From a virus (Duplodnaviria; Heunggongvirae; Uroviricota; Caudoviricetes): DNA of 64,000 bases. The first letter of the stretch is position 1. Each line of letters begins with the position of its first letter. Location of the stretch: positions 61,580 to 125,579 of the IMG/VR virus record IMGVR_UViG_3300013426_000013; one strand, given 5' to 3'. Shown one piece after another: positions 105 to 34,850 of this stretch. The notes under the pieces are model-generated. The model searched no databases. It saw only the letters and a list, made by a program, of their open reading frames with translations, and was not told the origin of the DNA. Position numbers and translations under genes: made by a program.

Positions 105-329
105 GTGTATTTGCTTTACTATAACAGAAACCTTAATCAATACAGTTTTGTTTTTACATTCTCAAACGGTCACAGCACAACAGTCTTTTTGGATGGAACA
201 TTATATGATAACTTGAAACATGTTGATAGCAAACAGTTAGGAACGGTGGTTGTTCTTTTACATTCAGATCGTTTCGAACAGTACATTGTTTTAAATGATG
301 TCGGAAACACCTGTTTAAAAGAGATTTAA
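105..329 (+). CDS. small protein, C-terminal-motif (CTM) family member; ends VGNTCLKEI
   Basis: 74-aa ORF. C-terminal G at -8, L at -4 and hydrophobic at -1 match the family consensus shared with about 18 other ORFs in the window. Confidence 0.45.
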   Translation: MYLLYYNRNLNQYSFVFTFSNGHSTTVFLDGTLYDNLKHVDSKQLGTVVVLLHSDRFEQYIVLNDVGNTCLKEI

Positions 330-419
330 ATTTTGATATCTTTTAAAGTTAAATATTTTATACATAGGGTGTTGTAAGGTATGATATATTTTGCTTAACA
401 ATCAGAAAGATGTTTTGAG

Positions 420-773
420 ATGATTGAAGATGGTATTAATGGTATTATAAAGAAAGTGTCCGATTGGTTTGTAGGTCGAACGGTTAATATACCTGATTGC
501 AACAAAACTTTAACGATTCATGTGAATGAGTTTATTCCTTCAGATACATTCCTTCAGTTTGATGGTCTTTATTTACATTTTTATGGTAAAGATATAAACA
601 ATAATGAAGAGAAAATTCGTTTAATTTTGTTTGTTGATATAGATCTTTTTGATGCTGTAGGATCAACAAACAGTAAATTCTTTAGGTGTTCAAAGAGATT
701 TGTTGCTTTTTTAGGCTATAGACTTTTCTTTGAGCTCGCTGATTTAAATGAAGAGTGTCTTGAAAGTATTTGA
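420..773 (+). CDS. small protein, CTM-family-like; ends NEECLESI
   Basis: 117-aa ORF on the same strand. The C-terminal L-E-S-I tail resembles the family but the G is absent. Confidence 0.4.
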   Translation: MIEDGINGIIKKVSDWFVGRTVNIPDCNKTLTIHVNEFIPSDTFLQFDGLYLHFYGKDINNNEEKIRLILFVDIDLFDAVGSTNSKFFRCSKRFVAFLGYRLFFELADLNEECLESI

Positions 774-785
774 AAAGGTTATTCT

Positions 786-1151
786 ATGCAGTTTAAACAT
801 ACTAATAAGGACATTATTGATAAATGTGAAGCTATCCTTTTAAAGGTTGTAAACATTAATGATATTCATTATAGTAATGACATGTTTTCAGCCGGGAGAA
901 TTTCAACGATATCTGATCCACCGTATAGAAAAAAAGAAAAAGGTATATATTTGTTTGTAAATGCAACAAGACATTCAACAAATAAAAAAGATTCAGTGTT
1001 GTGTATTTACGTTTGTAACGAGTTATTAGAACTAGACAAACAAGAAATAATCAATAAACAATTTAAAATTGAGAATATAAAGAGTAACTTGTTAAATTAT
1101 TTGAATGTTTTCGAAATTGATATTGGTGAATCTGTTTTGGAATCTTTTTAA
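786..1151 (+). CDS. small protein, CTM family; ends DIGESVLESF
   Basis: 121-aa ORF with the canonical DIGE-x-VLE-x-hydrophobic C-terminus. Confidence 0.55.
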   Translation: MQFKHTNKDIIDKCEAILLKVVNINDIHYSNDMFSAGRISTISDPPYRKKEKGIYLFVNATRHSTNKKDSVLCIYVCNELLELDKQEIINKQFKIENIKSNLLNYLNVFEIDIGESVLESF

Positions 1152-1522
1152 TGTGTGGAAGTGTAATGAAAGAAGTAGCAGACCCTTTTATATCACATAA
1201 TTTTAAACCTTTTTACTTACCATGGGATATTAGAATAGCTTTAGAAGACAATTTAGAAGGTTTAATTGTGCCATGTGAAAAGAATGAAGCAACAATATTT
1301 ATTCATTTTTATTTTCATATGCAGACTTTCGAAGGTTTAGATAACGATATCATTGTACGTGCTTTTGTAAATGCTGATGGTCATTATCAAGAAAAAACAT
1401 TTTATTTAGAAAAGACTTTGTTTGATTTCATAAAAGATAAAGTCAATATGGGTTTATACATCACAAAAGATTGTCAAATAAAATCATCTTTAATAGGTGA
1501 GTTTTTAACCTATGATATTTAG
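1151..1522 (+). CDS. small hypothetical protein, weak CTM-like end IGEFLTYDI
   Basis: 123-aa ORF whose start overlaps the previous stop (TAATG). The IGE tail is present but the spacing is shifted. Confidence 0.4.
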   Translation: MCGSVMKEVADPFISHNFKPFYLPWDIRIALEDNLEGLIVPCEKNEATIFIHFYFHMQTFEGLDNDIIVRAFVNADGHYQEKTFYLEKTLFDFIKDKVNMGLYITKDCQIKSSLIGEFLTYDI

Positions 1523-1525
1523 TTG

Positions 1526-1554
1526 TTGACATTTTCTTTTTAACGTTATACAAT
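1526..1554 (+). promoter_or_regulatory. sigma70-like promoter TTGACA-N17-TACAAT
   Basis: TTGACA at 1526-1531, a 17-nt spacer and TACAAT at 1549-1554, about 27 nt upstream of the RBS/ATG of the 1581 gene. Confidence 0.5.
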
Positions 1555-1580
1555 GTTTATATAATTCTTAAAGGTGAACT

Positions 1581-1907
1581 ATGTCGCAAATAATAAACCT
1601 ACCTAATGAGAAGTTTAATCAGTTAACAGATCAGTTGTATAATCTTAAATTTGAAACTGAACGTGGTATCTTTGCAATAGATAGTTATTTTGGGTTTACT
1701 CTATATGAAACATTTGATGAAAACTTTTATTTATTGAAGGTTATAGCAGCAAAAGAAAGTGTAACGAATGAACCTGTTTCAATGTATAACCACACTTTTA
1801 AACTTTTAAAATCTATTGTTGATAGCGACAAGGTACAAAAGTTATTCATAAAGGACATGACAATATACCCTGAAAACTTTGGCGAAACTATATTGCAGAC
1901 ACTTTAG
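1581..1907 (+). CDS. small protein, CTM family; ends FGETILQTL
   Basis: 108-aa ORF with a good RBS (AAGGTGAA). The C-terminus has G at -8, L at -4 and L at -1. Confidence 0.5.
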   Translation: MSQIINLPNEKFNQLTDQLYNLKFETERGIFAIDSYFGFTLYETFDENFYLLKVIAAKESVTNEPVSMYNHTFKLLKSIVDSDKVQKLFIKDMTIYPENFGETILQTL

Positions 1908-1972: not shown

Positions 1973-2281
1973 ATGACTAATTTTGTAGCTTTTAATGGTA
2001 AAACTCTTAAGACAATCTGTAAAGAATTAGGGTTGAACTATACAACTGTTACTCAACGAAGAATGAAGAATCCAGGAAAACCCTTGGAAGCATATCTTTA
2101 TCCTGTTAGAAAGAATCGTGGTGGCAATTGTCGTGCTGATTACTTGACTAATGATGGTAAACCTATGTATCAACTATTTAAAAATAGTAAATCACAATAT
2201 TCAAAAATGCTCTACTTAATGGGGAAGAAGAAATTAAGCTTTGATGAAGCTTATTCTATCGTGATGAAAGAAAACAAGTAA
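1973..2281 (+). CDS. hypothetical basic protein
   Basis: 102-aa ORF with an AAGGAA RBS. No recognisable motif. Confidence 0.4.
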   Translation: MTNFVAFNGKTLKTICKELGLNYTTVTQRRMKNPGKPLEAYLYPVRKNRGGNCRADYLTNDGKPMYQLFKNSKSQYSKMLYLMGKKKLSFDEAYSIVMKENK

Positions 2282-2619
2282 TGCCATATACTTCGTACAT
2301 TTTTGAAGAATTGTCTGTAACTAAAGCTGTTGAGTTTAAGAATGCGTTAATAGGTACGAAGTTTTATTATCGTAATACGTTATATGAAATTATTGGTTTA
2401 GAAAATTGTCTTTATTCATTGCACGGGACTGAACCATGGTCTATAAAAGTTAAAGCAATTGCTAAAGTTGATGGCATTTCATTAACTAAAGAATTTAGAT
2501 TTGATATATCTGAACATTTAATCAACAATGAACTTGACTATAAAAGTATGCAGTTTGCAATTGTAAATGGTGAAATTGTTCAAACTGATGTAGGTCAAGA
2601 AGTTTTAAATAACATATAA
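2281..2619 (+). CDS. small protein, CTM family; ends VGQEVLNNI
   Basis: 112-aa ORF with the C-terminal motif at the canonical spacing. Confidence 0.5.
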   Translation: MPYTSYIFEELSVTKAVEFKNALIGTKFYYRNTLYEIIGLENCLYSLHGTEPWSIKVKAIAKVDGISLTKEFRFDISEHLINNELDYKSMQFAIVNGEIVQTDVGQEVLNNI

Positions 2620-2681: not shown

Positions 2682-3572
2682 TTATTCTTTTTCAACAGCA
2701 CCATGTTGAATCAGATAATCCTTAATTTCATCATTATGTGTGAGTGATAGAATAGATGCGCCATCATTTGTAACAGCATTGACATCAGCACCATGTTCAA
2801 CTAAAATTTTGATAACATTTAAATTTGATGAAATGCAAGCACAGGCTAAAGGTGTGAATCCAGCAATTGAAGTAGCATTAACATCAGCACCTTTATCAAG
2901 CAACATATCAATAATATCAAGGTGACCTTCACGACTAGCAAAAATTAAAGGTGTGTCACCTTCCCATTCAGTATTATTAATATCAGCACCTAATTCAAGC
3001 GCTTTAACAGCTAGATCTAATTTATCAGAAATACAACTTCCTGTTAATAGACGATTAGCGTCATGTACAATAGCACCATGAAAAACTAAAGATTCAATAA
3101 TGTCATATACATGTTCAAAAGCACCTTCGTCTAAAAGAATATCAAGCGCAGTTTTTCCATCTTTATCTGTAATGTTTGGATCGGCACCATGTTCAAGTAA
3201 CCAATCGATTGTACTTAAATTAGCGTAATTTAAGCAAGACAAATACAGAATTGTTTCGCCATTGTTTGATTTGATATTGACATCGGCACCGTGTTCAACA
3301 AGTAATTGAGCAAGTTCAAGGTTATCTTGATAGATAGCACGAAACAATGGTGTTTCGCCATAGTAATCCGTAACGTTGACATCAATAGAAGGATCAGCTA
3401 AAACTTCTTTAACTAAATTAATATCACCGGAAAACAGTTTTACTTTTGTATTTTCCGATTCACCTTCTTCTATTAACTTTACAACGCTTTCTTTTAGTTT
3501 TTGATTAACTGTACGTCTAAAAGATTTAATCAATACTTCATCATCAATCATGTGTTTAGATTCCTTTATCAA
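2682..3572 (-). CDS. ankyrin-repeat protein
   Basis: 296 aa with at least 6 tandem ~33-aa repeats carrying G-(A)-D-V-N and T-P-L-x-x-A signatures (for example GADVNIKSNNGETILYLS, GADVNATSIAGFTPLACA). Confidence 0.8.
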   Translation of the reverse strand: MIKESKHMIDDEVLIKSFRRTVNQKLKESVVKLIEEGESENTKVKLFSGDINLVKEVLADPSIDVNVTDYYGETPLFRAIYQDNLELAQLLVEHGADVNIKSNNGETILYLSCLNYANLSTIDWLLEHGADPNITDKDGKTALDILLDEGAFEHVYDIIESLVFHGAIVHDANRLLTGSCISDKLDLAVKALELGADINNTEWEGDTPLIFASREGHLDIIDMLLDKGADVNATSIAGFTPLACACISSNLNVIKILVEHGADVNAVTNDGASILSLTHNDEIKDYLIQHGAVEKE

Positions 3573-4072
3573 TAAAATGATGCAATTTTTGGTGATAATG
3601 TTTTTAAATATTTAGGATCAACAATGTCAATCATGTTAACTTTTTTGAGCAGACTGTAAGGTGATGACCAAACGTTTTCTTGACTATATAAATCAGCACC
3701 ATGACTTAAAAGATAATTGATTTTATCTTTAGCATCATCAATATCTTCTTGCGTTGTGTGTTTATCTAAACTATCAACAAAGTTTTTTGTTATCATTTGT
3801 AAAACTTTATTCATACGTTCATTGTCAAAATAAGCAGGATAATGTTTAAGAAGCAGATCAGCAACATCAAAAGCTTTACTTTCAAAACATATAGCAAAAG
3901 CAATGCGACTATCTATTCCGAAATCTTTTGGATGCTGTTCCTCAAAGTTTTTAATGTCATCAACAGACATTGTTTCTACTGTAACAAATTCACGTTCAAC
4001 AAGTTTAGATAGTTTGTTCTGAATAACTTGCTTAAAGTCTTCAAACAGTGTTTCTTTACTAGACATTGACAA
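3569..4072 (-). CDS. hypothetical protein with ankyrin-like C-terminal segment
   Basis: 167 aa, overlapping the downstream ankyrin gene by 4 nt (operon-like). The C-terminal LLSHGADLY resembles one ankyrin repeat. Confidence 0.5.
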   Translation of the reverse strand: MSMSSKETLFEDFKQVIQNKLSKLVEREFVTVETMSVDDIKNFEEQHPKDFGIDSRIAFAICFESKAFDVADLLLKHYPAYFDNERMNKVLQMITKNFVDSLDKHTTQEDIDDAKDKINYLLSHGADLYSQENVWSSPYSLLKKVNMIDIVDPKYLKTLSPKIASFY

Positions 4073-4132: not shown

Positions 4133-4492
4133 ATGCCTAATTTAGAAGAAAAATGTCTAAAGATAATGTTGAATAATTTTGTGAAAAATGATTGGTTTGT
4201 AAACTTAACATCTGAACAACAAACTAAAATGACATGTCTGTTAAATAAAGTTGTTAACAAAGATTATGGTTTAGATGTGGAAATCAAGAAGGTCATTTCA
4301 CAACCAACCTTTACCTTTATCAATTTAATTTGTTTTACAATAACATTAAAAAATAATGAACAGTTAACAATTTATGTTTCAGATGATATTAAAAAATATA
4401 AAGATAGATTAGATTGTATATGTTTAAAAAGAGTTAAAGACAATGAGTTTAATGTTGCGGATATCGGCGAGTCAGTTTTAAAAGAGTTATAA
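4133..4492 (+). CDS. small protein, CTM family; ends DIGESVLKEL
   Basis: 119 aa with a canonical C-terminus and an RBS GGAAGG. Confidence 0.6.
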   Translation: MPNLEEKCLKIMLNNFVKNDWFVNLTSEQQTKMTCLLNKVVNKDYGLDVEIKKVISQPTFTFINLICFTITLKNNEQLTIYVSDDIKKYKDRLDCICLKRVKDNEFNVADIGESVLKEL

Positions 4493-4493: not shown

Positions 4494-4829
4494 ATGAGTT
4501 GTTTTGATAAATTATCAAAAGAGCAATTATATGATTTCATTGATGTTTTCGATGAGTTGATTTTAAAAGAATTCAAATGGTGTCGAGCATATGATAAAGA
4601 GTCATTTATTAATGACTTTCTAGCAACTGTTCAAGAACTGGATGACGTTTATTGTTTTTATATTGATGTAAAAAGAAAAGGTGGTAAGAAAAGAAATTCG
4701 CAATTTTTCTATTTTGATAAATTATTTTTCAATAATTTAAATAATTTCCATAAACTTAAACTTAAGCGTGTTGATGAAACAACTTTTATGGTAGAAGATA
4801 TTGGTAATGAAACTTTAGAAGGAATTTAA
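4494..4829 (+). CDS. small protein, CTM family; ends DIGNETLEGI
   Basis: 111 aa with a canonical C-terminus, tightly packed with its neighbours. Confidence 0.6.
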   Translation: MSCFDKLSKEQLYDFIDVFDELILKEFKWCRAYDKESFINDFLATVQELDDVYCFYIDVKRKGGKKRNSQFFYFDKLFFNNLNNFHKLKLKRVDETTFMVEDIGNETLEGI

Positions 4830-4830: not shown

Positions 4831-5199
4831 ATGCAATTACAAGTCGGGATTGGTTTAGATAGTGTTGTTAAAAAAGCACAAGATTTAGTTGAACAATCAT
4901 CACCTTTATATATTATGGACAATGGTGTTAAAAGGGTAGTATTAGGTGTTCATACAAAAATTAATTCCGGTTTGATTTTTGATGACGATTACTATTATAT
5001 TGATGTTGCAACGAAAATAGTAGGCGAAGATTATTTTCAAACAAAAGCAACAATTCGTATTGCTGTTGATAAAAAATTGATTGATGCTATTCATGACACT
5101 AAAAAATACAAAGCTAAATTTGTTTATAGGTTAAGCGCAATTTGTAGCCAAGAATTAGAAATTGTTGATATAGGTGAACGTGTTTTATCAAAAATCTAG
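4831..5199 (+). CDS. small protein, CTM family; ends DIGERVLSKI
   Basis: 122 aa with a canonical C-terminus. Confidence 0.6.
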   Translation: MQLQVGIGLDSVVKKAQDLVEQSSPLYIMDNGVKRVVLGVHTKINSGLIFDDDYYYIDVATKIVGEDYFQTKATIRIAVDKKLIDAIHDTKKYKAKFVYRLSAICSQELEIVDIGERVLSKI

Positions 5200-5326: not shown

Positions 5327-5716
5327 ATGCAGTTTGATTTATATAAAAACTCGAAACTTTTTAAAAATGTTCAACAGTTGTTTACAGTGGCTAAAGGTTT
5401 GGCTGTCAGGTGTGAAGATAATACTTTTGTCATTTTAAAGTTTCGAGAAAAAGGATATGGTTTTCAGATAAATGTGAATGGTGTTTTATGGGTAGGATTT
5501 CCTGTCGAATGCTTGAATTTTAACCCTCTTCTTCTTAACGAAGAAAAACCAATTGTTAATAACAATATCTTTTGTTTAGCGAGTTGGATTGAAAAAACTT
5601 CTGAATTCAAAAAAGAAAATCTTGAATTCTTTCAAATGAACAGTACGGATGCTTTAGACAATAAATTAGTTATTCAAGATAAATCAATTGGTGCTGTTAC
5701 ATTAAACAATATTTAA
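5327..5716 (+). CDS. small protein, CTM family; ends IGAVTLNNI
   Basis: 129 aa with G at -8, L at -4 and I at -1. Confidence 0.5.
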   Translation: MQFDLYKNSKLFKNVQQLFTVAKGLAVRCEDNTFVILKFREKGYGFQINVNGVLWVGFPVECLNFNPLLLNEEKPIVNNNIFCLASWIEKTSEFKKENLEFFQMNSTDALDNKLVIQDKSIGAVTLNNI

Positions 5717-8859: not shown

Positions 8860-10155
8860 ATGGTTGATAAAGTTTGTAAACTGTCTAGCGGTGCAACGTT
8901 TTTGTATAATCAGCAAGAAGACGATCTTTCATCGTTTGCTGTTTTGTTTGATGTTGGTTCTATTGACGAATTGGCAAATGAAAAGAAAGGTATTGCACAT
9001 TGTCTTGAACATATGATGTTTAAAGGTACGAAAACAAAAACAGCCGCTGAATTTCTTAACTTAATGGATAAGTTGGGGGTTGAGTCTAATGCTTTTACTT
9101 GTTTTGATGCCACTTGTTATCATGGTACATTTCATAACGATGATACAAAAGAAGTTATCAATTTGTTTGGTGAAATGTTAACTGAACCACGTTTCGATGA
9201 AAAAGATTTGGCTTTAGAAAAAGGTGTAATTCATCAAGAAATCATTATGTTTGAAAATAGTCCACAGGAACGTGCGCAACAACATGGTGTAAGTGTACTG
9301 TTTAAAGATACGCCTTTTGCAAGGCCTGTTATTGGGTATTGGAAAGATGTTAATGCGATTACATCTGATGACTTGCGTTCATTTATGCATAATCATTATA
9401 CACCCGCTAATTGCATTATTGCATATTCAGGTAAAACACCTTTTAATGAAGTGCGCAATATTGTTGAAGAATTTACAAAGAAATTCTCAAATAATAATGT
9501 TGTATACGAACGTGCGTCTGTACAGTTAAATTTAGGTGCTGATACTGTTGTTATTGAAGATAAAGAAACCAAACAGAATACAATTATGATTGGTGGTTCT
9601 TCATATACTTCAAACTCTATTGGTGGCGTTGCAAGCATCCTTGCAAAAGCTGTTTTAGCTGGCGGGTTGGCAAGTCGTTTAGTTAAGCGTATTCGTGAAG
9701 AATTAGGGTTGTGTTACTATATTGGGATTGCAAATGTCCCATCTATTAAAGATATTGTCACGCCACTAGTTGTTTGTATCACGGATAAAGATACAAAGAT
9801 GGTAGAGGCTGAAATCAAAAAAGTCATTGCTGAAGCCATTAAAAACGGTTTCGAAGATGAAGAAATTAAAGCTGTTAAAAAACATGGTGAGTTATGTTGT
9901 ATTCAGTCGAACATCAACCGTGATGATTATGCAGTTCGTATGTGTACAAATTATCAAGGTACAGGGAAGCTACCTTCACAGTTGTTGAAAACTAAAGTGT
10001 CTCGTTTTAAGAAAGCTTCTAAAAAATCTATCGAAGAAGCTGTTGATAAAATGTTTTGTGAGACAACTTCTATTCATGTAATCAAACCTGTTGAAAAAGA
10101 GTGCGCTGTTAAACGGTTCTTTAAAACAATCTTTAACCGATTGAATGAAGAATAA
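8860..10155 (+). CDS. M16-family (insulinase/pitrilysin-like) zinc peptidase
   Basis: 431 aa with the inverted zinc motif HCLEHMMFKGT (HxxEH) near the N-terminus, as in M16 peptidases. RBS AAAGGT. Confidence 0.8.
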   Translation: MVDKVCKLSSGATFLYNQQEDDLSSFAVLFDVGSIDELANEKKGIAHCLEHMMFKGTKTKTAAEFLNLMDKLGVESNAFTCFDATCYHGTFHNDDTKEVINLFGEMLTEPRFDEKDLALEKGVIHQEIIMFENSPQERAQQHGVSVLFKDTPFARPVIGYWKDVNAITSDDLRSFMHNHYTPANCIIAYSGKTPFNEVRNIVEEFTKKFSNNNVVYERASVQLNLGADTVVIEDKETKQNTIMIGGSSYTSNSIGGVASILAKAVLAGGLASRLVKRIREELGLCYYIGIANVPSIKDIVTPLVVCITDKDTKMVEAEIKKVIAEAIKNGFEDEEIKAVKKHGELCCIQSNINRDDYAVRMCTNYQGTGKLPSQLLKTKVSRFKKASKKSIEEAVDKMFCETTSIHVIKPVEKECAVKRFFKTIFNRLNEE

Positions 10156-10871: not shown

Positions 10872-11075
10872 TTGAAAGAATCTTTTGAAAAGAGTTGGCG
10901 AAATTGGAAAATAAATAAAGATTTGATAAACATAAATTTACAGCCTGAACCTTTATACTCAACTACTTTTGAGGAATTGGAACGTTTTACTCAAACACTA
11001 GAAAAGAATTTAGGAAAGACTAGAAAACAAATTGTTCAAGAAATTAAAGAAATGATAAAAAGTGAAAATTTCTGA
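10872..11075 (+). CDS. truncated copy of the C-terminal domain of the duplicated HExxH family
   Basis: 67 aa. Its last ~45 aa (PLYSTTFEELERFTQTLEKNLGKTRKQIVQEIKEMIKSENF) are near-identical to the C-termini of the two downstream paralogs. Confidence 0.4.
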   Translation: MKESFEKSWRNWKINKDLININLQPEPLYSTTFEELERFTQTLEKNLGKTRKQIVQEIKEMIKSENF

Positions 11076-11968
11076 TGAATGATACTTTAAACAAATTTAT
11101 CAAACGTTGGTCTACACCAAATTATAAAAGAATGATGTGTTTAGAAGAGTCTTTTTATAAAGATTATATTGCAGCTTTAACATATTATAAAACTGTAATT
11201 GGTTTGTTGGATGACTACACTTCATTTAAGAATGAAGAAGATAGTGTTATAAAGAACAATTTCTTTAAAGAATTGAATGCAATATATTTAAAAATAAATG
11301 ATAAGCAACCTTCTATATCGTTCAGTTTTAATAAAAACATAAAAGAAATTTCTGGAAACTTTATGCAATTTAAATTTCCTGGAATCATAACTATTGCTGT
11401 ATTTAGATTGTTTAATAAAATTCCTAATACAATAAGTGAAGGTGTTGCTTTTGTGAAAAAAGCAATTAATACTGATTTAACAGTTTTAATGTCAATTTTG
11501 CATGAATACTTTCATTTTTTGTTTGAGAACGGTTTGTCAACAGAGGAGTTTCAAATGCTTAACAACAATACTAAAGAATCTGAATTTAATTCATATACAA
11601 AAGAGTTAATGATTCAATTATTGGCATCAAATGACAATAAATTCTTTTCAAAAGAAGGTGATTTAAAGAAAGCCTATCACGAATTTGAAGATACTATTGA
11701 AACAAAGAAGAATTTGCTGCAAATTTGCAATGATGAGAAATTGATTCTAGATACATTGTTTCAATACAATAAAAGTTATGAGTTGAAAGAATCTTTTGAT
11801 ATAAGAGCCGAAATTGATATGTTAACGTTACGACGTACCAAACCTTTATATACAACAACACTTGACGATTTGGAAAAGTTTACTCAAACACTAGAAAAGA
11901 ATTTAGGAAAGACTAGAGAACAGATCTTTCAAGAAATTAAAGAAATGATAAAGAGTAAAAATTTCTGA
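11075..11968 (+). CDS. HExxH-motif protein, duplicated family copy 1
   Basis: 297 aa containing ILHEYFHFLFENG (HExxH). It is the tandem paralog of the 11968-12854 gene. Confidence 0.55.
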   Translation: MNDTLNKFIKRWSTPNYKRMMCLEESFYKDYIAALTYYKTVIGLLDDYTSFKNEEDSVIKNNFFKELNAIYLKINDKQPSISFSFNKNIKEISGNFMQFKFPGIITIAVFRLFNKIPNTISEGVAFVKKAINTDLTVLMSILHEYFHFLFENGLSTEEFQMLNNNTKESEFNSYTKELMIQLLASNDNKFFSKEGDLKKAYHEFEDTIETKKNLLQICNDEKLILDTLFQYNKSYELKESFDIRAEIDMLTLRRTKPLYTTTLDDLEKFTQTLEKNLGKTREQIFQEIKEMIKSKNF

Positions 11969-12854
11969 TGAGCGATACTTTAAATAGATTTAAAAGAAGA
12001 TGGTCTACGCCAAATTATAAAAGAATGATGTGTTTAGAAGAATCTTTCTATAAAGATTATGCAATAGCGTCTACTTTTTATGTTGCCAATCTAAAGCAAT
12101 TGGATAATGCCAACTATTTCAAATTTAATAGTCAAAATATCTTAAATAATTTTGTCTCTTTTCAATCGATTGTTGTACAAATAAATAACAAGCAGCCAAC
12201 GTTATCCTTTAATTTTAATAAAAATATAAACGGTATTTCTGGAAACTTTAACCAAATAATGTACCATGACCTTATAACAATACCTTTATTTCATTACTGT
12301 AACAAAGTACCGGAAACAATAGAAGAAGGCATTAACTTAATTAAGCAATTAATAAAAGAAAATGAATTGATATCAGTATCAATTTTGCACGAATACTTTC
12401 ATTTTTTGTTTGAAAATGGTTTATCAACAGAGGAATTTAAAATGTTTAATGATAAAACAATGCGTTCAGAATTTAATAATTTAATTCATTTACAAAAGAA
12501 TTGATGGTTCAGTTATTATCTTCTAACGAAGATAAACACTTTAACACTGAAGAAGATTTAAAAAGGGCATATGAGAATTTCAAAGATAAATTAGAAACAA
12601 AAAAGAATTTATTACAGTTTTGTAATGATGAAAAATTAATTTTAGATACGCTAATCAAATACAATAAAGATTTTGAATTGAAAGAAGCCTCGGAAACAAG
12701 ATGGCAAATAGATTTAATCAATTTACAATCCGAACCTTTATATTCGACTACTTTTGAAGAATTGGAACAGTTTACACAAATGCTAGAAAATAGTTTAGGA
12801 AATACCAGAAAACAAATTGTTCAAAGTATTTTAGACATGGCTAATAAGAATTAA
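11968..12854 (+). pseudogene. HExxH-motif protein, duplicated copy 2, disrupted by an 8-bp tandem duplication (frameshift)
   Basis: Two overlapping ORFs (11968-12504 and 12501-12854) together align end-to-end with copy 1. Around 12480-12495 copy 2 reads GAATTTAATAATTTAATTCAT where copy 1 has GAATTTAATTCAT, an AATTTAAT duplication giving a +2 frameshift. Confidence 0.5.
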
Positions 12855-16595: not shown

Positions 16596-16598
16596 TTC

Positions 16599-20942: not shown

Positions 20943-21280
20943 GACATTTTTATTGGTTTGGTGGGTATATTAAAAAACGCAATAGTTGTCAACGTGTTGA
21001 ATTTATTGTATCCAAAGAAGAAGCGAAACTTTACAAATTTGTCGACTATAAGCTTGTTGAAGAAAAGAATTCGTCGTCAAAAGATTTATGGAGTGATGCA
21101 TCAAGTATGATTCAAAAAGCTGGTCATTGGAGTGACGAAGCGGATGCAGCTTTAGCTTTTAACGGTTATTTGTGGTCTGAAATTACAAGACAAGAATTTA
21201 ATGAAATTTATAAAGCTGGAACTGTAGAAGAAAAAGACTTGCGAATGATTTACTTGCAGTATTTGAAAGAAAAAGACTAA
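20939..21280 (+). CDS. hypothetical protein
   Basis: 113 aa, start overlapping the previous stop (ATGA). Confidence 0.45.
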   Translation: MRHFYWFGGYIKKRNSCQRVEFIVSKEEAKLYKFVDYKLVEEKNSSSKDLWSDASSMIQKAGHWSDEADAALAFNGYLWSEITRQEFNEIYKAGTVEEKDLRMIYLQYLKEKD

Positions 21281-22247: not shown

Positions 22248-23108
22248 ATGTCTGATGAATTAGAAACTATTAACATTTTTGATTATGATAAATTTGATTG
22301 GAGTAGACTTGAAACACATTCAATATCAGGAATTAAAACTACGTCTAAAGAAGATGAAGATAGTTTTGTTAAGAGGTATTGTTTAAAAGAAGCTAAAGTT
22401 GTTATTGAACCTGATACTTTTCCTTATGATATAAAACAAGATTCAATTGGAATAGTTTATAGCGGCGGTTATGATTCAACTGTTTTAATGCTTAAAGCGT
22501 TGTTGAATGGTGAAACAGTGAAACCAATCATCTTTAATTTTGCACAAGATGATATAATTAAAGCAATTAATTTATCTGTTTTGAAGAAAAGGTTTGGCAA
22601 TAAATTATTAAAGCCTATTTGGTTTGGGTTGTTTGGCCTACAAGAAGGAATGTGTGGAAAGCAGTGTACACAACAGTTGATGATTCATAATAATTTGACA
22701 TATCTATCTGATGGCGTCTTGAAAAACTTAAAAGAAATTCAGATTGGGTATGTAATGAATGATGATGCTGTTTCTTTTCAAGAAGAATTTAAAAGTGTAG
22801 TATCAACAAGCTTTAAGATTCAAAATAAAAAGAACGTTCCTGTTACCTATCCTTTAATTCAAAAGCACAAATACTGTATTGATGATTTTATTGCACAGCA
22901 TTTAGGAAAGAATCATTTATGTTTGTCATGCGAATCACCAAACTTTAACTATTACAAAGATTCAGAAGCATTATATGTTGTTACAAAAGTTTGTCATTGT
23001 TGTCATTCTTGTTTCCAATCTAAATATTTAAAACTAAATTTTTATAATGATAGTGACAATTTAGTTTTAGCAACACGTATTCCTTTTGTAAAAAATTTTT
23101 GTTTTTGA
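22248..23108 (+). CDS. PP-loop ATP pyrophosphatase (QueC/TtcA/ThiI-like)
   Basis: 286 aa with the N-terminal PP-loop IVYSGGYDSTVLM (SGGxDS) and a C-terminal Cys cluster CLSCES ... VCHCCHSC resembling a QueC Zn site or TtcA Fe-S site. Confidence 0.65.
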   Translation: MSDELETINIFDYDKFDWSRLETHSISGIKTTSKEDEDSFVKRYCLKEAKVVIEPDTFPYDIKQDSIGIVYSGGYDSTVLMLKALLNGETVKPIIFNFAQDDIIKAINLSVLKKRFGNKLLKPIWFGLFGLQEGMCGKQCTQQLMIHNNLTYLSDGVLKNLKEIQIGYVMNDDAVSFQEEFKSVVSTSFKIQNKKNVPVTYPLIQKHKYCIDDFIAQHLGKNHLCLSCESPNFNYYKDSEALYVVTKVCHCCHSCFQSKYLKLNFYNDSDNLVLATRIPFVKNFCF

Positions 23109-23974: not shown

Positions 23975-24394
23975 GTGATGCAATTGGTTTTGGCAAAAGA
24001 AGAAATGAAGCAAGTGACAAAGTTGCGTAATTTGTTTAAAGGACTGTACGTTAGATGTTTCATGTCTATCGCAGTTGAAAACACTGATGTTGTTCGTGTG
24101 TTAAGTAAACAAAATCGAGCTACACAAGGAAATTGGTGGCGGGATCATCACAAAGCAAGTCAAGAACGTGAAATGTTAAATGTCTTTTATTTTAGTGACA
24201 GTGACAACGTAAGCATTGAATTAAAGGCAACTTTTGATAATAAAGAGTTTAATTTTTCGATTGTTGTCCCTATTAATGAATTAAGGCAAATTACAAAACA
24301 AACAAATTTAAGCGATTTAATTATTAAACCTGATTTTCATTGTGTTTTTGTTACTTTAAAAAATATTGGTGAAGTAGCTTTAGAAACTATTTAG
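23975..24394 (+). CDS. small protein, CTM family; ends IGEVALETI
   Basis: 139 aa with a canonical C-terminal motif. Confidence 0.55.
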   Translation: MMQLVLAKEEMKQVTKLRNLFKGLYVRCFMSIAVENTDVVRVLSKQNRATQGNWWRDHHKASQEREMLNVFYFSDSDNVSIELKATFDNKEFNFSIVVPINELRQITKQTNLSDLIIKPDFHCVFVTLKNIGEVALETI

Positions 24395-24403: not shown

Positions 24404-24709
24404 ATGATTGAACCTATTACAGAAAATTTGAGATTATTAATGAATTTGGTCAGTCAAAAGTTTTCGAACTTCGTTGATTGGAATGAGAAAGACGCTGCGA
24501 TTGATTCAAAATATTTGACCGTTAAAAATGTTTCTATAACAAATGGTTTTACAGGATTTGAACTAGATATACAAATCACATTGGCAGAGTTAATGCTAAT
24601 CACTGAAGATACAAAAGAAAATCAAATATTATTTGACTATAATAAAGAGTCTCATTTTCTTGAAGTGTCATTTAAAGATATAGGTGCGCAAACATTGGAG
24701 TGCGTGTAA
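24404..24709 (+). CDS. small protein, CTM family; ends IGAQTLECV
   Basis: 101 aa with a C-terminal motif. Confidence 0.5.
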   Translation: MIEPITENLRLLMNLVSQKFSNFVDWNEKDAAIDSKYLTVKNVSITNGFTGFELDIQITLAELMLITEDTKENQILFDYNKESHFLEVSFKDIGAQTLECV

Positions 24710-25059
24710 TGACTGTGTATGAGAAGTTTGAAACGCAAACAATGCAAATTGTTAAATCTTTAGATGGTAAAATTTTTAAAGATGAAAACGAATGTGAGTA
24801 CAAACTCGAAACTAAAGATGTTAAATATTCAATTGATTTAGTTGATACTTGGGCGGATTCTGATTTTTACTATATAAAGTTGTTTGCTGAAAGACAATAT
24901 TCTCTTTTGAAACAAAAGGAGATGTTTTATTTCAAAGTTTTGATTGATGGTTTTAACAATTGGCAAAAAGGAGATGTTTTAACTTTCAAATCTTGCAAGC
25001 GTCATTTCATTGATATGTCTATAGAAACTGTTGGGTGTGCATGCTTAAGTGAAATTTAA
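24700..25059 (+). CDS. small protein, CTM family; ends VGCACLSEI
   Basis: 119 aa with a C-terminal motif. Confidence 0.5.
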   Translation: MRVMTVYEKFETQTMQIVKSLDGKIFKDENECEYKLETKDVKYSIDLVDTWADSDFYYIKLFAERQYSLLKQKEMFYFKVLIDGFNNWQKGDVLTFKSCKRHFIDMSIETVGCACLSEI

Positions 25060-25563: not shown

Positions 25564-25862
25564 TGATGAAGGTAAATAGCATGAAATTGTGTAAAAGTAA
25601 ATTTAAAGAAAAGGCCAATTATTTTTATCTTGATGCTGTTGATTACGTTAATGCTATTGATTTGAACAATTTTGTGATCCCTGAAAAGGTAGAGTTTACA
25701 TCAATCAAACAAATGGTTGAATATGCAATGGAATTAGTACCTGCTACTGCATTAGAGTCTTTTGCCAGTTTTCATTATATCAAAAATGATGTAATGAAAG
25801 AAGAAATTGCAATGTTGTTCAAATACGACAATAGTGGAAATTTACAAACATTTAAATGCTAA
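25560..25862 (+). CDS. hypothetical protein
   Basis: 100 aa, start overlapping the previous stop. Confidence 0.4.
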   Translation: MMMKVNSMKLCKSKFKEKANYFYLDAVDYVNAIDLNNFVIPEKVEFTSIKQMVEYAMELVPATALESFASFHYIKNDVMKEEIAMLFKYDNSGNLQTFKC

Positions 25863-26215
25863 ACCATTGAAATTGTTATATATCCATCACCAGATTTAAA
25901 TCTTTGAGTGTGTTTTACGTTCGTACATAAATCTGGGTTTGTGTATGAAGAACCACCTCCGCCGCCAGCACTACAAGTACCAACTTTTTTAACTAACCCA
26001 CTATCGCCGCCACCGCCGCCACCAACAACAGTAATTGTTAATGATAATAATTCTTTAGGTAAAGTGAAGCTATATGTTCCTGCTGCATTAAAAATTTTGT
26101 TTTCTGTCGTCTGAACTTTAGTGACATAAACAAGTGTCGATCCTTTATATATGCGTCTTGCTTTTTTGCTATTTGCGTTAATGATGCTGATGTTTGTAGT
26201 TTTGAAAAGTGACAT
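25859..26215 (-). CDS. glycine-rich structural protein family, member
   Basis: 118 aa with a TYSFTLPKELLSLTITVVGGGGGGDSG core shared with 49592, 49981, 60455 and 48962. A GTCGTACGA element lies ~50 nt upstream, at 26265. Confidence 0.55.
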   Translation of the reverse strand: MSLFKTTNISIINANSKKARRIYKGSTLVYVTKVQTTENKIFNAAGTYSFTLPKELLSLTITVVGGGGGGDSGLVKKVGTCSAGGGGGSSYTNPDLCTNVKHTQRFKSGDGYITISMV

Positions 26216-27733: not shown

Positions 27734-28116
27734 CCGTTATGTTTACATATAGTTTACTCTTCTACCATAGTGACGGCACAATAACAGGGCCCCACATTGA
27801 TGCTTTTTGTGAAACTATAAAGGGTTTGAAATGCAAATCTCATATTAAATTTGACGGGTGTAATTTAGCGACAATATTTGATACAGAAAAATTTTTTATG
27901 GATTCTGGTGAATATTATACTTTAAAAGCAAAGGTTGAAAACACAGAGAAACATATGTTTACGGTTGAAACTTTTTGTGTTGATAAAGATTGGTTTAAAA
28001 GTATTAATTGTTTTGACAATATGAAATTTAAAGTCATTTTGAAAACAACAACTAAAGGCAATTTACAATTTATAAATGAACAACCTATAGGTGAAATTAT
28101 TTTGGAAGATTTGTGA
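27703..28116 (+). CDS. small protein, CTM family; ends IGEIILEDL
   Basis: 137 aa with a C-terminal motif. Confidence 0.5.
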   Translation: MVCKAFSRVITVMFTYSLLFYHSDGTITGPHIDAFCETIKGLKCKSHIKFDGCNLATIFDTEKFFMDSGEYYTLKAKVENTEKHMFTVETFCVDKDWFKSINCFDNMKFKVILKTTTKGNLQFINEQPIGEIILEDL

Positions 28117-28501
28117 AATGAATATTGAAACAGCTAGAATAAATTTTAATAAAATCATGAATAAATTTTTAGGAACTGCAATAAAGTATACCGATCCTTT
28201 TTCACACAAGGAAAAGGCGATAAATTTTTTAAAACTAAAAGATGATTTTAATTTTGATGAGTGGATAAAGCATCAAATGGAACAGTTTCAATCACTTCCA
28301 CAGTTTAAAGATTGTTATGAGATTACATTGTATGGAAAAGACAAACATAACATTGAAAAAGCTTTTTCAATGTTTATAAAAAAAGATGCGTTGTTTAATA
28401 ATGCATCAAAATTAAAGTACAATTATGAATTTGTATTTGATTGTTTGTGCTGTTTTGTTTCAGATGATGGTATCGGCGCTAAAGTGTTAGAAGAAATTTG
28501 A
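28091..28501 (+). CDS. small protein, CTM family; ends IGAKVLEEI
   Basis: 136 aa with a C-terminal motif. Confidence 0.5.
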   Translation: MKLFWKICEMNIETARINFNKIMNKFLGTAIKYTDPFSHKEKAINFLKLKDDFNFDEWIKHQMEQFQSLPQFKDCYEITLYGKDKHNIEKAFSMFIKKDALFNNASKLKYNYEFVFDCLCCFVSDDGIGAKVLEEI

Positions 28502-28959
28502 TGATTTTAAAAGTTGTATATACAGTAATTTATATTTTACCTTCTATCGCAATGTTGTTTTACAGAGATGGATGGCAACCTTTTGCATTACTGCTACCTA
28601 TATTACCTATTTGTGTAATTGATTTTAGTTGGAAACATTGTACAAATTATGTCATTGTAAATAAAGTGCAAATTAGTTGTTCAAATCTATCAAGAGAAAA
28701 TGTTTTATATTCATCAATAAGCGATTTTTATAATAGGTTGTCAAATGTTTTACAAATAAACAAATATACATTGTTGACAACTAATTTAAGTTCATTCGAC
28801 AGATTTATGTTTAAATTGTTGTTCAAGCATGTAATTGTGAGTTGGTGTCAGAAACAATTCAAGGGTGAAATCAAAATCAGTTTTAGCGCACTTTATAATC
28901 AGCTTGTTTATAAAGTTGAAAAAGTTGAAATTGGAGAAGTTTGTTTAAATAGTTTTTAA
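28498..28959 (+). CDS. small protein with N-terminal TM helices, CTM family; ends IGEVCLNSF
   Basis: 153 aa with a hydrophobic N-terminus and the family C-terminal motif. Confidence 0.5.
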   Translation: MMILKVVYTVIYILPSIAMLFYRDGWQPFALLLPILPICVIDFSWKHCTNYVIVNKVQISCSNLSRENVLYSSISDFYNRLSNVLQINKYTLLTTNLSSFDRFMFKLLFKHVIVSWCQKQFKGEIKISFSALYNQLVYKVEKVEIGEVCLNSF

Positions 28960-29642: not shown

Positions 29643-29951
29643 ATGAAAAACAATGATACTGAATTGACGCAATCTGTAAAAGACTTTATATTGGCAACAC
29701 CTTTATATGGTTATGAAGTTATGTCTGTTGATGCTGCAAATGCATCAACGAAAAAAGGTTATACTTGTATTGAAGTTACATTAAAATACAGTACGTCATT
29801 TAATGTTGTCGAAGCGATTGTTTGGATTAACAACAAATATCTTGATGAACGTTTATATAAATATTTTAGGTATCAGAAAATGGATACTAATAAGTTTCAT
29901 GATGAAATAGTTCCTATTGAAATTGGTGAAAATGCTTTAAACGAAATTTAA
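29643..29951 (+). CDS. small protein, CTM family; ends IGENALNEI
   Basis: 102 aa with a C-terminal motif. Confidence 0.5.
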   Translation: MKNNDTELTQSVKDFILATPLYGYEVMSVDAANASTKKGYTCIEVTLKYSTSFNVVEAIVWINNKYLDERLYKYFRYQKMDTNKFHDEIVPIEIGENALNEI

Positions 29952-29960: not shown

Positions 29961-30143
29961 ATGATAGTTGAATTATCAGAAAAACAAATAATTAGTAAAT
30001 CGGAAAAAGAACATTTAAAACGTGTTGAGCAATTGAATAGCCTAGAGCATTTAAACAATATTGCACGTGAAGAGTTGAAAGAGTGTTTGAGAATCCATTT
30101 TGAATTGTTTGGCTTTAAAAGGTTAAAAAATGAGAAATTATAA
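29961..30143 (+). CDS. small coiled-coil protein
   Basis: 60 aa with an RBS AAAGGTG. Weak. Confidence 0.3.
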   Translation: MIVELSEKQIISKSEKEHLKRVEQLNSLEHLNNIAREELKECLRIHFELFGFKRLKNEKL

Positions 30144-30897
30144 TGATATTTATTTATCTATTTTAATGAATGAGATGCTTGCACCACGACCTTTAAAGTT
30201 TGTGTCTTTTAATAATTGCTTTAAGTTATTAAATATGTTCGTTTATGCAATAAAACATATTATAAATAATTGTTCAGATAAAATTATTGAAGGAAAGCAG
30301 AACCAAAAAAATCAACAATTGACAGGGACAATTAAAGGGTTAAAAATCAATATCATTTTTGAATTTGATACTGATGAAGATGATACTTTAGCAAGTTTTA
30401 ATCCTTTAGTGTATCCGTATGAATTGTGCATTAATTTAAAACATTTAAATCTTAATAATAAAGAAGATTTAATAGAATACATTAATTCAATAAAATTTCA
30501 AACAATTCTAGCACACGAAGTTTGTCATTTTCAGCAAACAATTGAATATGGTGTATCAGAAATGAAACGATTTATAAATATGGAAAAAAATATTAAAAAC
30601 TATCAAACATCACCAATTGAATTGGAAGCTTGTGTCTTTATGGTTTTAGAAAACGCTAAAAGAAACAATGTTACAATAAAAGATTTAAATGAGTTTAATG
30701 ACTTCGTTTCATCTTTAAGTGAAGATTATCTTAATTTGGCAAAGACATTTATTAGCAACAATCAAGTTGCTGTCAAAGCAATTTTTGAAAACAACGAATT
30801 ATTAGAAACGTTTAATGAAAATATTGATGAAACAGATGTGGTGATTCTCGGCCCTTGCGTCACCGTAGGCAAAAGAAAGCATGTAAAATGGTGGTAA
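30130..30897 (+). CDS. HExxH-motif protein (putative metallopeptidase)
   Basis: 255 aa containing TILAHEVCHFQQTIEYG. Confidence 0.5.
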   Translation: MRNYNDIYLSILMNEMLAPRPLKFVSFNNCFKLLNMFVYAIKHIINNCSDKIIEGKQNQKNQQLTGTIKGLKINIIFEFDTDEDDTLASFNPLVYPYELCINLKHLNLNNKEDLIEYINSIKFQTILAHEVCHFQQTIEYGVSEMKRFINMEKNIKNYQTSPIELEACVFMVLENAKRNNVTIKDLNEFNDFVSSLSEDYLNLAKTFISNNQVAVKAIFENNELLETFNENIDETDVVILGPCVTVGKRKHVKWW

Positions 30898-31229
30898 ATA
30901 CCAAGAATAAAAAGCTTGAACTGATTTATCAAATTTTAAATGAAAAAGAGTCAACATTTAATCTATATGATAACGAATATTACGTCAAAACATGTCATAC
31001 ATTTTCACTTGATAAAGAAAATAATGAGTATGTTGTCGCAGGTGCTATTTATTTAGATAAAGAAAGAGCTACGAATGCATCTGGCTACATTATAGTTCGA
31101 GTGACAAGAGAAGATTTAAAACAATTTTCTAAAACATTTGAAAAAGATGATTTGTTTTTAGAAACACATGGGTTGTCCATATTAATAAAAAGAAAGGATG
31201 TTGGAAAAGTTGTGCTAGATGTTATTTAA
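30855..31229 (+). CDS. small protein, CTM family; ends VGKVVLDVI
   Basis: 124 aa with a C-terminal motif. It overlaps the upstream gene in another frame. Confidence 0.45.
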   Translation: MRHRRQKKACKMVVNTKNKKLELIYQILNEKESTFNLYDNEYYVKTCHTFSLDKENNEYVVAGAIYLDKERATNASGYIIVRVTREDLKQFSKTFEKDDLFLETHGLSILIKRKDVGKVVLDVI

Positions 31230-33015: not shown

Positions 33016-33263
33016 ACATCATAATCGCTTGAAGTCTGTTTGTTTAAAACTTCTTCTTCATGAGCCTTTTGACAATGATTACGATAACCTGTAAAGATGG
33101 CAAAAGAGATATCAATAATAAAACATGTCACTATAAAAAATAGTTTGCCTTCATATGCTTTTCTGTAGCTACGGGCAGCAAATGTTTCATCAGGGTAACC
33201 AAACAGAATGCTGTTTAGTAATTGACTAATTGATATCAAAATGTTTTTTATGTATTGTTTCAT
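33012..33263 (-). CDS. small membrane protein
   Basis: 83 aa with two TM helices. It is the only minus-strand gene in this block. Confidence 0.4.
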   Translation of the reverse strand: MKQYIKNILISISQLLNSILFGYPDETFAARSYRKAYEGKLFFIVTCFIIDISFAIFTGYRNHCQKAHEEEVLNKQTSSDYDV

Positions 33264-33304
33264 ATGTCACCTTGAAACTTTATAGATATAAGAACTAATT
33301 TAAA

Positions 33305-33333
33305 CTTGACAATTCAACCGTTTTGCTTTATTG
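33305..33333 (+). promoter_or_regulatory. sigma70-like promoter TTGACA-N17-TATTGT
   Basis: TTGACA at 33305-33310. Confidence 0.4.
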
Positions 33334-33823
33334 TTTATTTAATGAAAGGAAACTTATGAGTAAAATTAATAAAAAATATAAAGCAAAAATTTATCGAGAT
33401 TCATGGTCAATTGATACTGCGTTTTATGCCTGGTTGTTGCCAAGGTTAAAATGTTATCGTGATTATACAAATGGTTGGCCGGATCAAGAATATAAAACAT
33501 TTGATGATTTCATTTCAGATATTAATGAAAAAATTAAATGGCTTGAATTCTTGTATAAAGCAACATCAACAAGAAAAGATTTGGCAATCACAAAAGAAGA
33601 AATTGATTCATTGTTTAATGAAGAAATGATTGACAAATATTATCAAGGTGACTGGCGTTATTGGCTAAATAAAGCACCACTTCATATAAAATGTGGTGAA
33701 TATGAAAAGATTTATGACGAAGGTGAAAGTAATTATATTTGGAAACAAGAAATTCTTCAAAATGCTTTAAGTAAAGCTTTTGGAGAGTGGTTTGGAAGTC
33801 ATTATTTCATGTTATGGTGGTAG
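33323..33823 (+). CDS. hypothetical protein
   Basis: 166 aa. The true start is probably the internal MSKINKKY downstream of the GGAAAC RBS. Confidence 0.45.
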   Translation: MLYCLFNERKLMSKINKKYKAKIYRDSWSIDTAFYAWLLPRLKCYRDYTNGWPDQEYKTFDDFISDINEKIKWLEFLYKATSTRKDLAITKEEIDSLFNEEMIDKYYQGDWRYWLNKAPLHIKCGEYEKIYDEGESNYIWKQEILQNALSKAFGEWFGSHYFMLWW

Positions 33824-33832
33824 CAAATAATC

Positions 33833-34039
33833 ATGAAGATGTTTATTTTAAATTTATCAAAATTTCAATTGATGTTTACAGTAGTAACTTCATTGGTTGT
33901 GTTGTCACAGGTTTTTGATGAATCAGAAGAAAGCATTTTCATTTTTCAAATTTATATGTTGTTTAACACTTTATCTGTGATTTTATATTTGTTTGGTGAT
34001 ATTGTTGCTGAAGAATATGAAATTGTTGATAAGCAATAA
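33833..34039 (+). CDS. small membrane protein
   Basis: 68 aa with two TM helices. Confidence 0.4.
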   Translation: MKMFILNLSKFQLMFTVVTSLVVLSQVFDESEESIFIFQIYMLFNTLSVILYLFGDIVAEEYEIVDKQ

Positions 34040-34059
34040 AGTTTAGAAGGAATGTACTA

Positions 34060-34407
34060 ATGGGAAGAAAAGCTAAATATACACCTGAAGAAAGAAAAGA
34101 ACGTGCTAAAGAGTATCGTAAAAACTATTATAAGAATATGCCTGAAGAAAAGAAAGCAGAATATAGAAAACGTTTTTACGAATATTTGAAAAAGCGTCGG
34201 CAGAACCGTACTGAAGAACAGATCGCTAAAGACAAAGAAAAAAGTCATCAGAGTTATAAAAAGTATATTTCTGTTCCAGAAAATCGTGCAAAATCAAATC
34301 AGCGAGCAAAAGAGTATTATCAAAGTCATAAAAAAGAAATTTTAGAGAAACAGCGGCAACGTTATGTAAATATGACTTCTAAAGATAAAGATAAAGATAA
34401 AGATTAA
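34060..34407 (+). CDS. highly charged basic protein (Lys/Arg/Glu-rich)
   Basis: 115 aa, about 45% K/R/E, ending with a KDKDKD repeat. RBS GAAGGAA. Confidence 0.45.
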   Translation: MGRKAKYTPEERKERAKEYRKNYYKNMPEEKKAEYRKRFYEYLKKRRQNRTEEQIAKDKEKSHQSYKKYISVPENRAKSNQRAKEYYQSHKKEILEKQRQRYVNMTSKDKDKDKD

Positions 34408-34850
34408 TGCGATTGTTAATGCCGAACGAGTGGACAGCATCATTGTGTTCAAACAAAGTTGTAGTCAACCGTTTAATACAATATCAAAGTTCATCTGAAC
34501 AATACTTTTTAGATAGTACTAATGAACACTTTAAGAAGATTCTTAAGGTGATTCAAAGTCATTGCTATACATATATTGTTGAATGTTTAAAACAAAATTC
34601 TGGTGGTCGTTGTTGCAACGGCAAAAATACGTTTGTTCAAATTTGGGATATGCCAAAATGTCAAACAAGTATTAATTCTATTTGGGTACAAGTTTATACT
34701 AAAGGAAGACGTGCATATTATGCCCATGAAGATTGTTTTAAGAGGTCACATATTGCATTCGAAGAGTTGCGTTTCATTACTGATGAATACACAAAAACAC
34801 GATATATTGTTTTAAAAGAATGTGGTGAAGTTGTTTTGGAGTCTATTTGA
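34407..34850 (+). CDS. small protein, CTM family; ends CGEVVLESI
   Basis: 147 aa with a C-terminal motif (G at -8, L at -4, I at -1). Confidence 0.5.
   Translation: MRLLMPNEWTASLCSNKVVVNRLIQYQSSSEQYFLDSTNEHFKKILKVIQSHCYTYIVECLKQNSGGRCCNGKNTFVQIWDMPKCQTSINSIWVQVYTKGRRAYYAHEDCFKRSHIAFEELRFITDEYTKTRYIVLKECGEVVLESI

Follow-up and report, generated by a model that had tools for sequence, protein, structure and literature searches.

The stretch of DNA analyzed here (the window) comprises 64,000 nucleotides from a virus of the class Caudoviricetes (IMG/VR record IMGVR_UViG_3300013426_000013, positions 61,580 to 125,579), and it carries arrays of small genes whose products end in a common C-terminal motif. 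In a six-frame listing of open reading frames (ORFs), the pattern G-x3-L-x2-[ILFVM]-stop ends 17 window ORFs of 74 to 153 amino acids (aa), all on the plus strand between positions 105 and 34850. Two degenerate members, one ending in ...DLNEECLESI with Asn in place of Gly and the other in ...IGEFLTYDI with Thr at -4 (positions are counted from the C terminus), bring the window total to 19. When a hidden Markov model (HMM) of the family was run against all ORFs of the window, exactly these 19 were recovered with E values of 1.8e-5 or below, the next ORF having an E value of 0.07. An earlier inspection of the DNA by a model that saw only the letters and the ORF list (the sequence-only reading) had counted about 19 such proteins with a rigidly placed motif, and this count holds.

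Members of the family, their common motif, and their genomic setting

The members are collected in Table 1. The 19 ORFs are real genes, although the first is truncated by the window start and several start positions were placed too far 5' in the original listing (27703, 28091, 28498, 30855, 24700, and 23975). Single-base indels break 786-1151 and 1151-1522 in assemblies that are ~99 to 100% identical (L010:10367-11105 and L011:10367-10734). These frameshifts are either assembly errors or strain-level pseudogenes, the latter marking individual members as dispensable.

Table 1. Family members encoded in the window and their C-terminal tails
Positions	Strand	Status	Tail	Remarks
1-329 (listed ORF 105-329)	+	member cut by window start	...LNDVGNTCLKEI	full protein 123-124 aa; same as P0007, L010:9539-9910
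420-773	+	degenerate member	...ADLNEECLESI	Asn at -8, in orthologs too (P0016); body z 8.0
786-1151	+	member	DIGESVLESF	frameshifted in two other assemblies
1151-1522	+	degenerate member	LIGEFLTYDI	Thr at -4, Ile in ortholog P0015
1581-1907	+	member	NFGETILQTL	TTGACA-N17-TACAAT site upstream at 1526
2281-2619	+	member	DVGQEVLNNI	hairpin after gene
4133-4492	+	member	DIGESVLKEL	
4494-4829	+	member	DIGNETLEGI	modeled confidently by AlphaFold2
4831-5199	+	member	DIGERVLSKI	body z 11.7
5327-5716	+	member	SIGAVTLNNI	no body match to tail-less profile
23978-24394	+	member	NIGEVALETI	promoter-like site at 23917
24404-24709	+	member	DIGAQTLECV	
24709-25059	+	member	TVGCACLSEI	
27739-28116	+	member P0001, 125 aa	PIGEIILEDL	most typical body of the family (z 13)
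28118-28501	+	member P0011	GIGAKVLEEI	
28501-28959	+	member P0012	EIGEVCLNSF	hydrophobic N terminus resembling transmembrane segments
29643-29951	+	member	EIGENALNEI	promoter-like site at 29589
30888-31229	+	member P0018	DVGKVVLDVI	
34407-34850	+	member	ECGEVVLESI	Cys-rich body unmatched by profile

The sequence-only reading had allowed that AT-rich ORFs might produce such a pattern by chance. From the rate of the pattern inside ORFs (0.0015 per position), 0.22 C-terminal matches would be expected among 143 ORFs, and shuffling of residues within ORFs yielded 0.15 on average and never more than 3 in 2,000 trials, against the 17 observed. Chance therefore does not account for the pattern.

The constraint on the tail acts on the protein and not on the DNA, because the synonymous positions of both key codons vary: the tail Gly is encoded by GGT, GGA, GGC, and GGG and the tail Leu by TTA, TTG, CTT, and CTA. 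Sequences 3' of the members' stops are also unlike each other, and members at the ends of operons still carry the motif, which together with the varying codons excludes that the motif stems from a recombination site, ribosome-binding site, or terminator shared by the final codons. TAA, TAG, and TGA are all used at the same tail position. The stops are thus true gene ends in the standard code, as the sequence-only reading had assumed, and with the large ORFs intact under code 11, readthrough or an alternative genetic code is ruled out.

The gene set described in that reading extends beyond the window. Within the 9.5 kb upstream, the same phage carries 18 further members, of which two are encoded on the minus strand (window position 1 corresponds to position 9582 of L010). 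The phage thus encodes at least 37 members, with 13,374 nt of coding sequence over about 44 kb, or about 4% of its ~314-kb genome, and 28 of them lie within the first ~15 kb of the arrays. The gene preceding the first upstream member (before L010:188) is a non-member, so the array may begin there; a metagenome scan with that first member found nothing, which leaves this upstream limit a suggestion. A related phage (L005) has 26 members in 14.6 kb, with orthologs that are 31 to 81% identical and some changes in order, gains, or losses. Identical proteins are found on metagenomic contigs of 313 to 314 kb (e.g., ENA ERZ27300218 k119_53550 and NCBI GCA_902725595.1 CACUWO010000001.1), and the source is a huge phage present across many samples.

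Across the 37 paralogs, Gly at -8 is present in 36 and Leu at -4 in 34, and the C-terminal consensus is D-[IV]-G-x-x-[VCT]-L-[NE]-x-[ILVF]-COOH. The hydrophobic positions at -14, -9, -5, and -1 are far less strict, and any of I, V, L, F, and C can replace another there. At -3 and -2 the residue is mostly N, E, S, or D, so that the last residue alone among the final three is hydrophobic, and -5 is often Cys or Thr. As the sequences themselves show, the hydrophobic residues at -9, -5, -4, and -1 fit one face of a helix. Extension past the tail end was seen in a single case, the stop-loss variant P0045 on one short ENA contig of 718 nt, in which 24 residues run on beyond the tail (...IGSICLNEVWHKSY...).

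The family is restricted to this phage lineage, with many copies per genome. A search of 1.84 billion representative proteins with the family HMM gave 11 matches, every one an ortholog from this phage group, and word-based homolog searches likewise found the same lineage only, a higher E-value cutoff adding one fragment. When 63 members were scanned individually against Pfam-A, PHROGs v4, and NCBIfam 20, no family was matched by more than two of them and none with an E value below 0.003; a profile search of PDB sequences with the family gave a best E value of 0.92. The neighboring Pnkp gene has one distant relative in IMG/VR (30% identity, on a 188-kb contig), and no family members lie near that relative. 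Nor was the family found described in the literature on jumbo-phage multigene families and on phage early-gene paralogs with a conserved C terminus, in agreement with the sequence-only reading, which did not recognize it. The family itself is new; small early phage proteins that have expanded into many paralogs are a known kind.

G+C content is 27 to 37% over most of the window, with a peak of 42% near 59 kb, and clear Shine-Dalgarno sequences stand ahead of the genes, which suggests a low-G+C host that uses Shine-Dalgarno initiation. The Pnkp/RNA-ligase protein shares ~33% identity with proteins from phages of Staphylococcus, Bacillus, and Alicyclobacillus, and there was no DNA-level match of the window among deposited phages (INPHARED). 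The window holds 18 sites of the form TTGACA-N17-TAnAAT where 7.5 are expected, a number reached in none of 100 shuffles. Most are on the plus strand within the first 33 kb, and about half of these are clearly intergenic; among them are sites directly 5' of two family blocks, those at 23975 and 29643. Because the arrays are dotted with these sigma-70-type promoter-like sites, the family genes are probably early genes transcribed by the host RNA polymerase.

A single divergent domain family

The sequence-only reading held that the members have unrelated bodies. With the 19 window sequences only, pairwise BLAST and a leave-one-out profile indeed saw almost no body homology. We therefore used a profile of 63 sequences from which the last 10 residues were removed and from which the orthologs of the test protein were excluded, and each held-out body was compared with 500 shuffles of itself. 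Four members gave z scores of 13.0, 11.7, 8.0, and 7.9, and four more gave 2.7 to 3.7 (Fisher P of 8e-11). In the phage as a whole, 15 of the 666 paralog pairs are detectable by BLAST, the closest being 44% identical; several align over 110 to 140 residues at 26 to 44% identity and link members transitively. The family is thus one divergent domain family and not a tag grafted onto different proteins, and the earlier description of the bodies is wrong for most members. Five window members (5327, 24404, 28501, 30888, and 34407) showed no body signal yet have a perfect tail. Overall, one small domain has expanded within this lineage by old duplications, and the copies then diverged to an extreme degree.

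Ratios of nonsynonymous to synonymous substitution rates (dN/dS) range from 0.13 to 0.63 in 15 ortholog pairs, which identifies the members as functional genes under purifying selection. Gly at -8 and Leu at -4 are each 95% identical between orthologs and are the only exceptional positions of the tail.

The alignments show one shared layout. An N-terminal helix leads into a variable segment, after which come a beta-hairpin (..YYhxh....hxhYhDKD), a short helix (LFxxI), and then another hairpin that runs straight into D-I-G. An AlphaFold2 model of 4494-4829, made from 36 sequences including its orthologs, had a predicted local distance difference test score (pLDDT) of 81.6 and a predicted template modeling score (pTM) of 0.71. 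It places helices at residues 3-6, 9-27, 35-45, and 76-80 and strands at 29-31, 47-49, 52-61, 67-75, 90-92, and 97-100. Residues 1-103 are confident, the body reaching a pLDDT of 85 to 91, and the sole segment below 50 is 104-111, from the invariant Gly to the end, where no secondary structure is assigned. A first model (4133-4492, 23 sequences) had a pLDDT of 55 and was unusable; it contained a low-confidence helix at residues 111-118. Fold comparison gave weak matches that included helix-on-sheet alpha+beta proteins (cystatin, NTF2-like, and VirB8-like), from which we claim nothing, and the family is without recognizable relatives in sequence or predicted fold. Judging from the model, each product is best explained as a small alpha/beta domain of ~110 aa in which an N-terminal helix, an antiparallel sheet, and a C-terminal beta-hairpin are followed by the tail.

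Candidate roles of the tail

Our tentative preference is that the tail docks to one common site, on a shared partner or on a neighboring subunit of the family. We favor docking because Gly and Leu are near absolute, the end is fixed, the tail is kept on bodies that have diverged past recognition, and the confident model leaves exactly the tail unplaced. The copies stem from old tandem duplications, after which the bodies drifted almost past recognition with each ortholog line under purifying selection and with Gly at -8, Leu at -4, and the final hydrophobic residue retained throughout. The variable surfaces of the domains might then bind or inhibit different host targets, as an arsenal for host takeover or counter-defense. 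The invariant tail would provide a Gly hinge and then a short amphipathic segment, and this segment would dock in the one common site, which could belong to a shared partner of host or phage origin or to an adjacent family subunit.

It is also important to point out what weighs against docking. The common partner is hypothetical, and duplication would by itself hand down a fixed distance from Gly to the stop. In the alignments and the model alike, a flexible linker before the tail is absent and the conserved beta-hairpin leads directly into it. Between orthologs, identity over the last 9 residues is 0.61, the same as over positions -10 to -40 (0.61), and dN/dS is 0.43 in the tail versus 0.29 in the body. 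The Asn of 420-773 and the Thr/Ile at -4 of 1151-1522 persist in their orthologs, so a long-lived member can do without the full motif. Early timing derives from promoter-like consensus matches, the first, low-confidence AlphaFold2 model showed the tail as a helix, and a low terminal pLDDT from a shallow alignment of 36 sequences is weak evidence.

Alternatively, the tail may be a structural cap, a Gly-capped two-turn amphipathic helix that packs on the protein's own sheet and closes the hydrophobic core, with no common partner or signal. We regard this as a strong rival, though somewhat less likely than docking. The hairpin running into the tail, homologous bodies to which duplication would pass on the stop position anyway, a tail that is conserved between orthologs to the degree of the preceding 30 residues with a dN/dS not below that of the body, the helix at 111-118 of the first model, and the helical periodicity of the hydrophobic residues would all be expected of such a cap. 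It is harder to reconcile with a model that is confident in the body and unplaced from Gly to the end. Furthermore, Leu at -4 is almost never I, V, or F, unlike every other core position, the five members without a body-profile match (one of them with a transmembrane-like hydrophobic N terminus) keep the tail, and only the stop-loss variant extends past the final residue. A tail that is functional in its own right, as the sequence-only reading supposed, is plausible, although none of the specific functions proposed for it is established: the constancy of the tail across paralogs and on unmatched bodies, and its low pLDDT, speak for it, whereas the absent linker and an ortholog conservation no better than that of the body speak against it.

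It is also conceivable, although unlikely, that the tail is a phage-specific C-terminal address tag. A single receptor would then recognize G-x3-L-x2-hydrophobic-COOH and so deal collectively with the diversified early proteins, of which there are at least 37. Candidates for that receptor are an unfoldase or protease of the host, a peptidase of the phage, a compartment or export gate, and the interior of the capsid. In the capsid-targeting sequence of the T4 internal proteins, the cargo-loading peptides of encapsulins, and the C-terminal signals of Dot/Icm effectors, hypervariable bodies carry a short terminal peptide that is read by one receptor; the T4 signal is N-terminal and cleaved, and encapsulin peptides follow a flexible linker. 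Unlike these systems, the present family has homologous bodies and no linker, its genes look early, and its receptor is hypothetical. Short acidic/hydrophobic C-terminal peptides also occur on long disordered linkers in the SSB C-terminal tip, the beta-clamp-binding motifs, and the FtsZ C-terminal peptide, where the position of the terminal hydrophobic residue relative to the carboxylate matters. Their consensus differs, with DDDIPF, QLxLF, and DIPxFLR for these hub peptides versus DIGxx[VCT]L[NE]x[ILVF] here.

A degron or processing signal would be a particular case of a tail with a free carboxylate, read by a host AAA+ or tail-specific protease or by a phage peptidase and giving the proteins a common short lifetime. 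The tail is predicted to be flexible, its distance to the C terminus is strictly fixed, and expression is probably early; the window also encodes an M16 peptidase (pitrilysin-type, YfmH/YfmF-like; 8860-10155) and several HExxH proteins. However, these peptidases are linked to the family by the same genome only. An ssrA-like degron (ClpX C-motif 1) has non-polar last three residues, a free carboxylate, and an unstructured tail, whereas the last three residues here are polar-polar-hydrophobic, with mostly N, E, S, or D at -3 and -2, and are unlike the LAA of ssrA-type tails. An invariant Gly eight residues from the end is also not normally needed, and we consider a degron improbable.

Still less probable is a packaging or ejection signal that sends the proteins into the capsid for injection with the DNA. 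The flexible tail would suit it, and there are precedents both for variable cargo with a short conserved terminal peptide and for hypervariable internal-protein loci, the latter in T4-like phages. Encapsulin-type or capsid-targeting systems have a linker-separated peptide and late co-expression with the shell. Here, a linker is absent, the spacing of the motif is unlike that of encapsulin peptides, and sigma-70-like early promoter sites dot the gene arrays, which are distant from the structural genes. A set of 37 different cargoes would lack precedent.

Neighboring genes and the place of the family among phage proteins

Four tandem, very divergent radical S-adenosylmethionine (radical-SAM) paralogs, each with an N-terminal CxxxCxxC, are encoded at 38331-42056 (+), and a C-terminal CGHS...CxxCD motif is present in all of them but 39191-40147. 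The sequence-only reading had suggested that the family's C terminus might be a follower recognized by these enzymes, as in precursors of ribosomally synthesized and post-translationally modified peptides. The genes do share the window, and Cys or Thr is frequent at -5. The tail nevertheless lacks an invariant modifiable residue, the products are folded domains of 90 to 155 aa and not short unstructured precursors, and 28 of the 37 genes lie >30 kb from the radical-SAM genes, the nearest (the last member) being 3.5 kb away. In NCBIfam, three of the four radical-SAM paralogs were matched weakly (15 to 22 bits versus cutoffs of 126 to 650) in the CxxxCxxC region only and the fourth (40147-41079) not at all; in Pfam, to which the first paralog only was compared, Radical_SAM matched below its cutoff. 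No peptide-maturase family came near its cutoff in these comparisons, in which no separate search was aimed at RRE or SPASM domain models; such domains could be present in proteins as divergent as these. Because the members are large and folded, most are far from the radical-SAM genes, and the paralogs match families only over CxxxCxxC, a role as follower is highly unlikely.

The radical-SAM paralogs are accompanied by a QueC-like PP-loop protein (22248-23108) and by three paralogs of ~320 aa (21280-22245, 42049-42987, and 44455-45420), whose sole database match is a weak one to the cysteine-desulfurase family for 42049-42987. Judging from these sequences, the set looks like a pathway for the modification of nucleotides, DNA, or a cofactor. 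Between the radical-SAM block and the third ~320-aa paralog lies a TnpB-related (IS200/IS605 accessory) protein, 43077-44423 (+). The end of 44455-45420 (+), ...NILEIDIGN-stop, was considered as a truncated or frameshifted family tail and rejected, as no tail continues in any frame and a hairpin comes next.

Two proteins lie in the middle of the family arrays on the opposite strand and are conserved in the related phage: an ankyrin-repeat protein (2682-3572, -) and a protein with an ankyrin-like motif (3569-4072, -). Both could be protein-binding partners. The products of 10872-11075, 11075-11968, and 12501-12854 (region 10872-12854, +) end in another repeated C-terminal module, EPLYSTTFEELExFTQxLEKNLGKTRxQIVQEIKEMIKSxNF, and 11968-12504 together with 12501-12854 resembles a split copy of the 297-aa HExxH protein 11075-11968. 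Metallopeptidase-like HExxH motifs without a Pfam match are present in 11075-11968, 11968-12504, 17676-18713 (-), and 30130-30897.

The remaining features include 10 tRNA genes at 14032-17417 (+; Ser, Ile-tat, Tyr, Thr, two Leu, Ser, Pro, Asn, and Gln), a block interrupted by a Dam-like methyltransferase ORF (14253-15107). Glycine-rich paralogs (Gly_rich_2/ALK_LTK_GRD-type), with a copy number that varies by strain, are found at 25859-26215 (-), 48962-49579 (-), 49981-50664 (+), and 60455-61108 (-). Three fiber-like proteins with a common ...QVFNGFGYIGST... are encoded at 18774-20096 (-), 61272-62525 (+), and 62611-63909 (+), and the protein of 36454-37110 (+) ends in a Ser/Cys low-complexity run (CSSSSSSSSSSCSCSSSSSCCSSSSS).

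Clusters of short ORFs with strong host-type early promoters, mostly without relatives, dispensable singly, and fast evolving, are known from the host-takeover module of SPO1, the pre-early genes of T5, and the terminal-repeat genes of Herelleviridae. Unlike those arrays of unrelated genes, a large share of the arrays described here is made up by one paralogous family with a common C terminus. A closer likeness is the ~35-copy zinc-ribbon family of Bacillus phage G, which was called unprecedented in a survey of jumbo phages and for which, as for other lineage-specific expansions of that type, a role in gene regulation or host conflict was proposed (Iyer et al. 2021, PMC7824862). In both phages, dozens of paralogs of a small domain occur in one very large genome and are restricted to a lineage. 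With at least 37 copies, the present family is as large as the phage G expansion, the biggest described phage case that we found. It differs in that its domain is without recognizable relatives and its hallmark is a motif at the extreme C terminus, not a metal-binding core.

Genes of unknown function number in the hundreds in huge phages, and in this 314-kb genome a single family takes up about 4% of the sequence. Its 8-residue tail with two near-invariant residues is a simple experimental handle. If the tail docks to one partner, that partner would be a hub targeted by dozens of diversified phage proteins, and the family would be a natural library of binders on one scaffold. An address tag, if true, would be the first bacteriophage-encoded C-terminal code that governs the sorting or turnover of dozens of client proteins. 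If the tail is merely structural, the family would be a clear case of extreme divergence after duplication in the early regions of phages.

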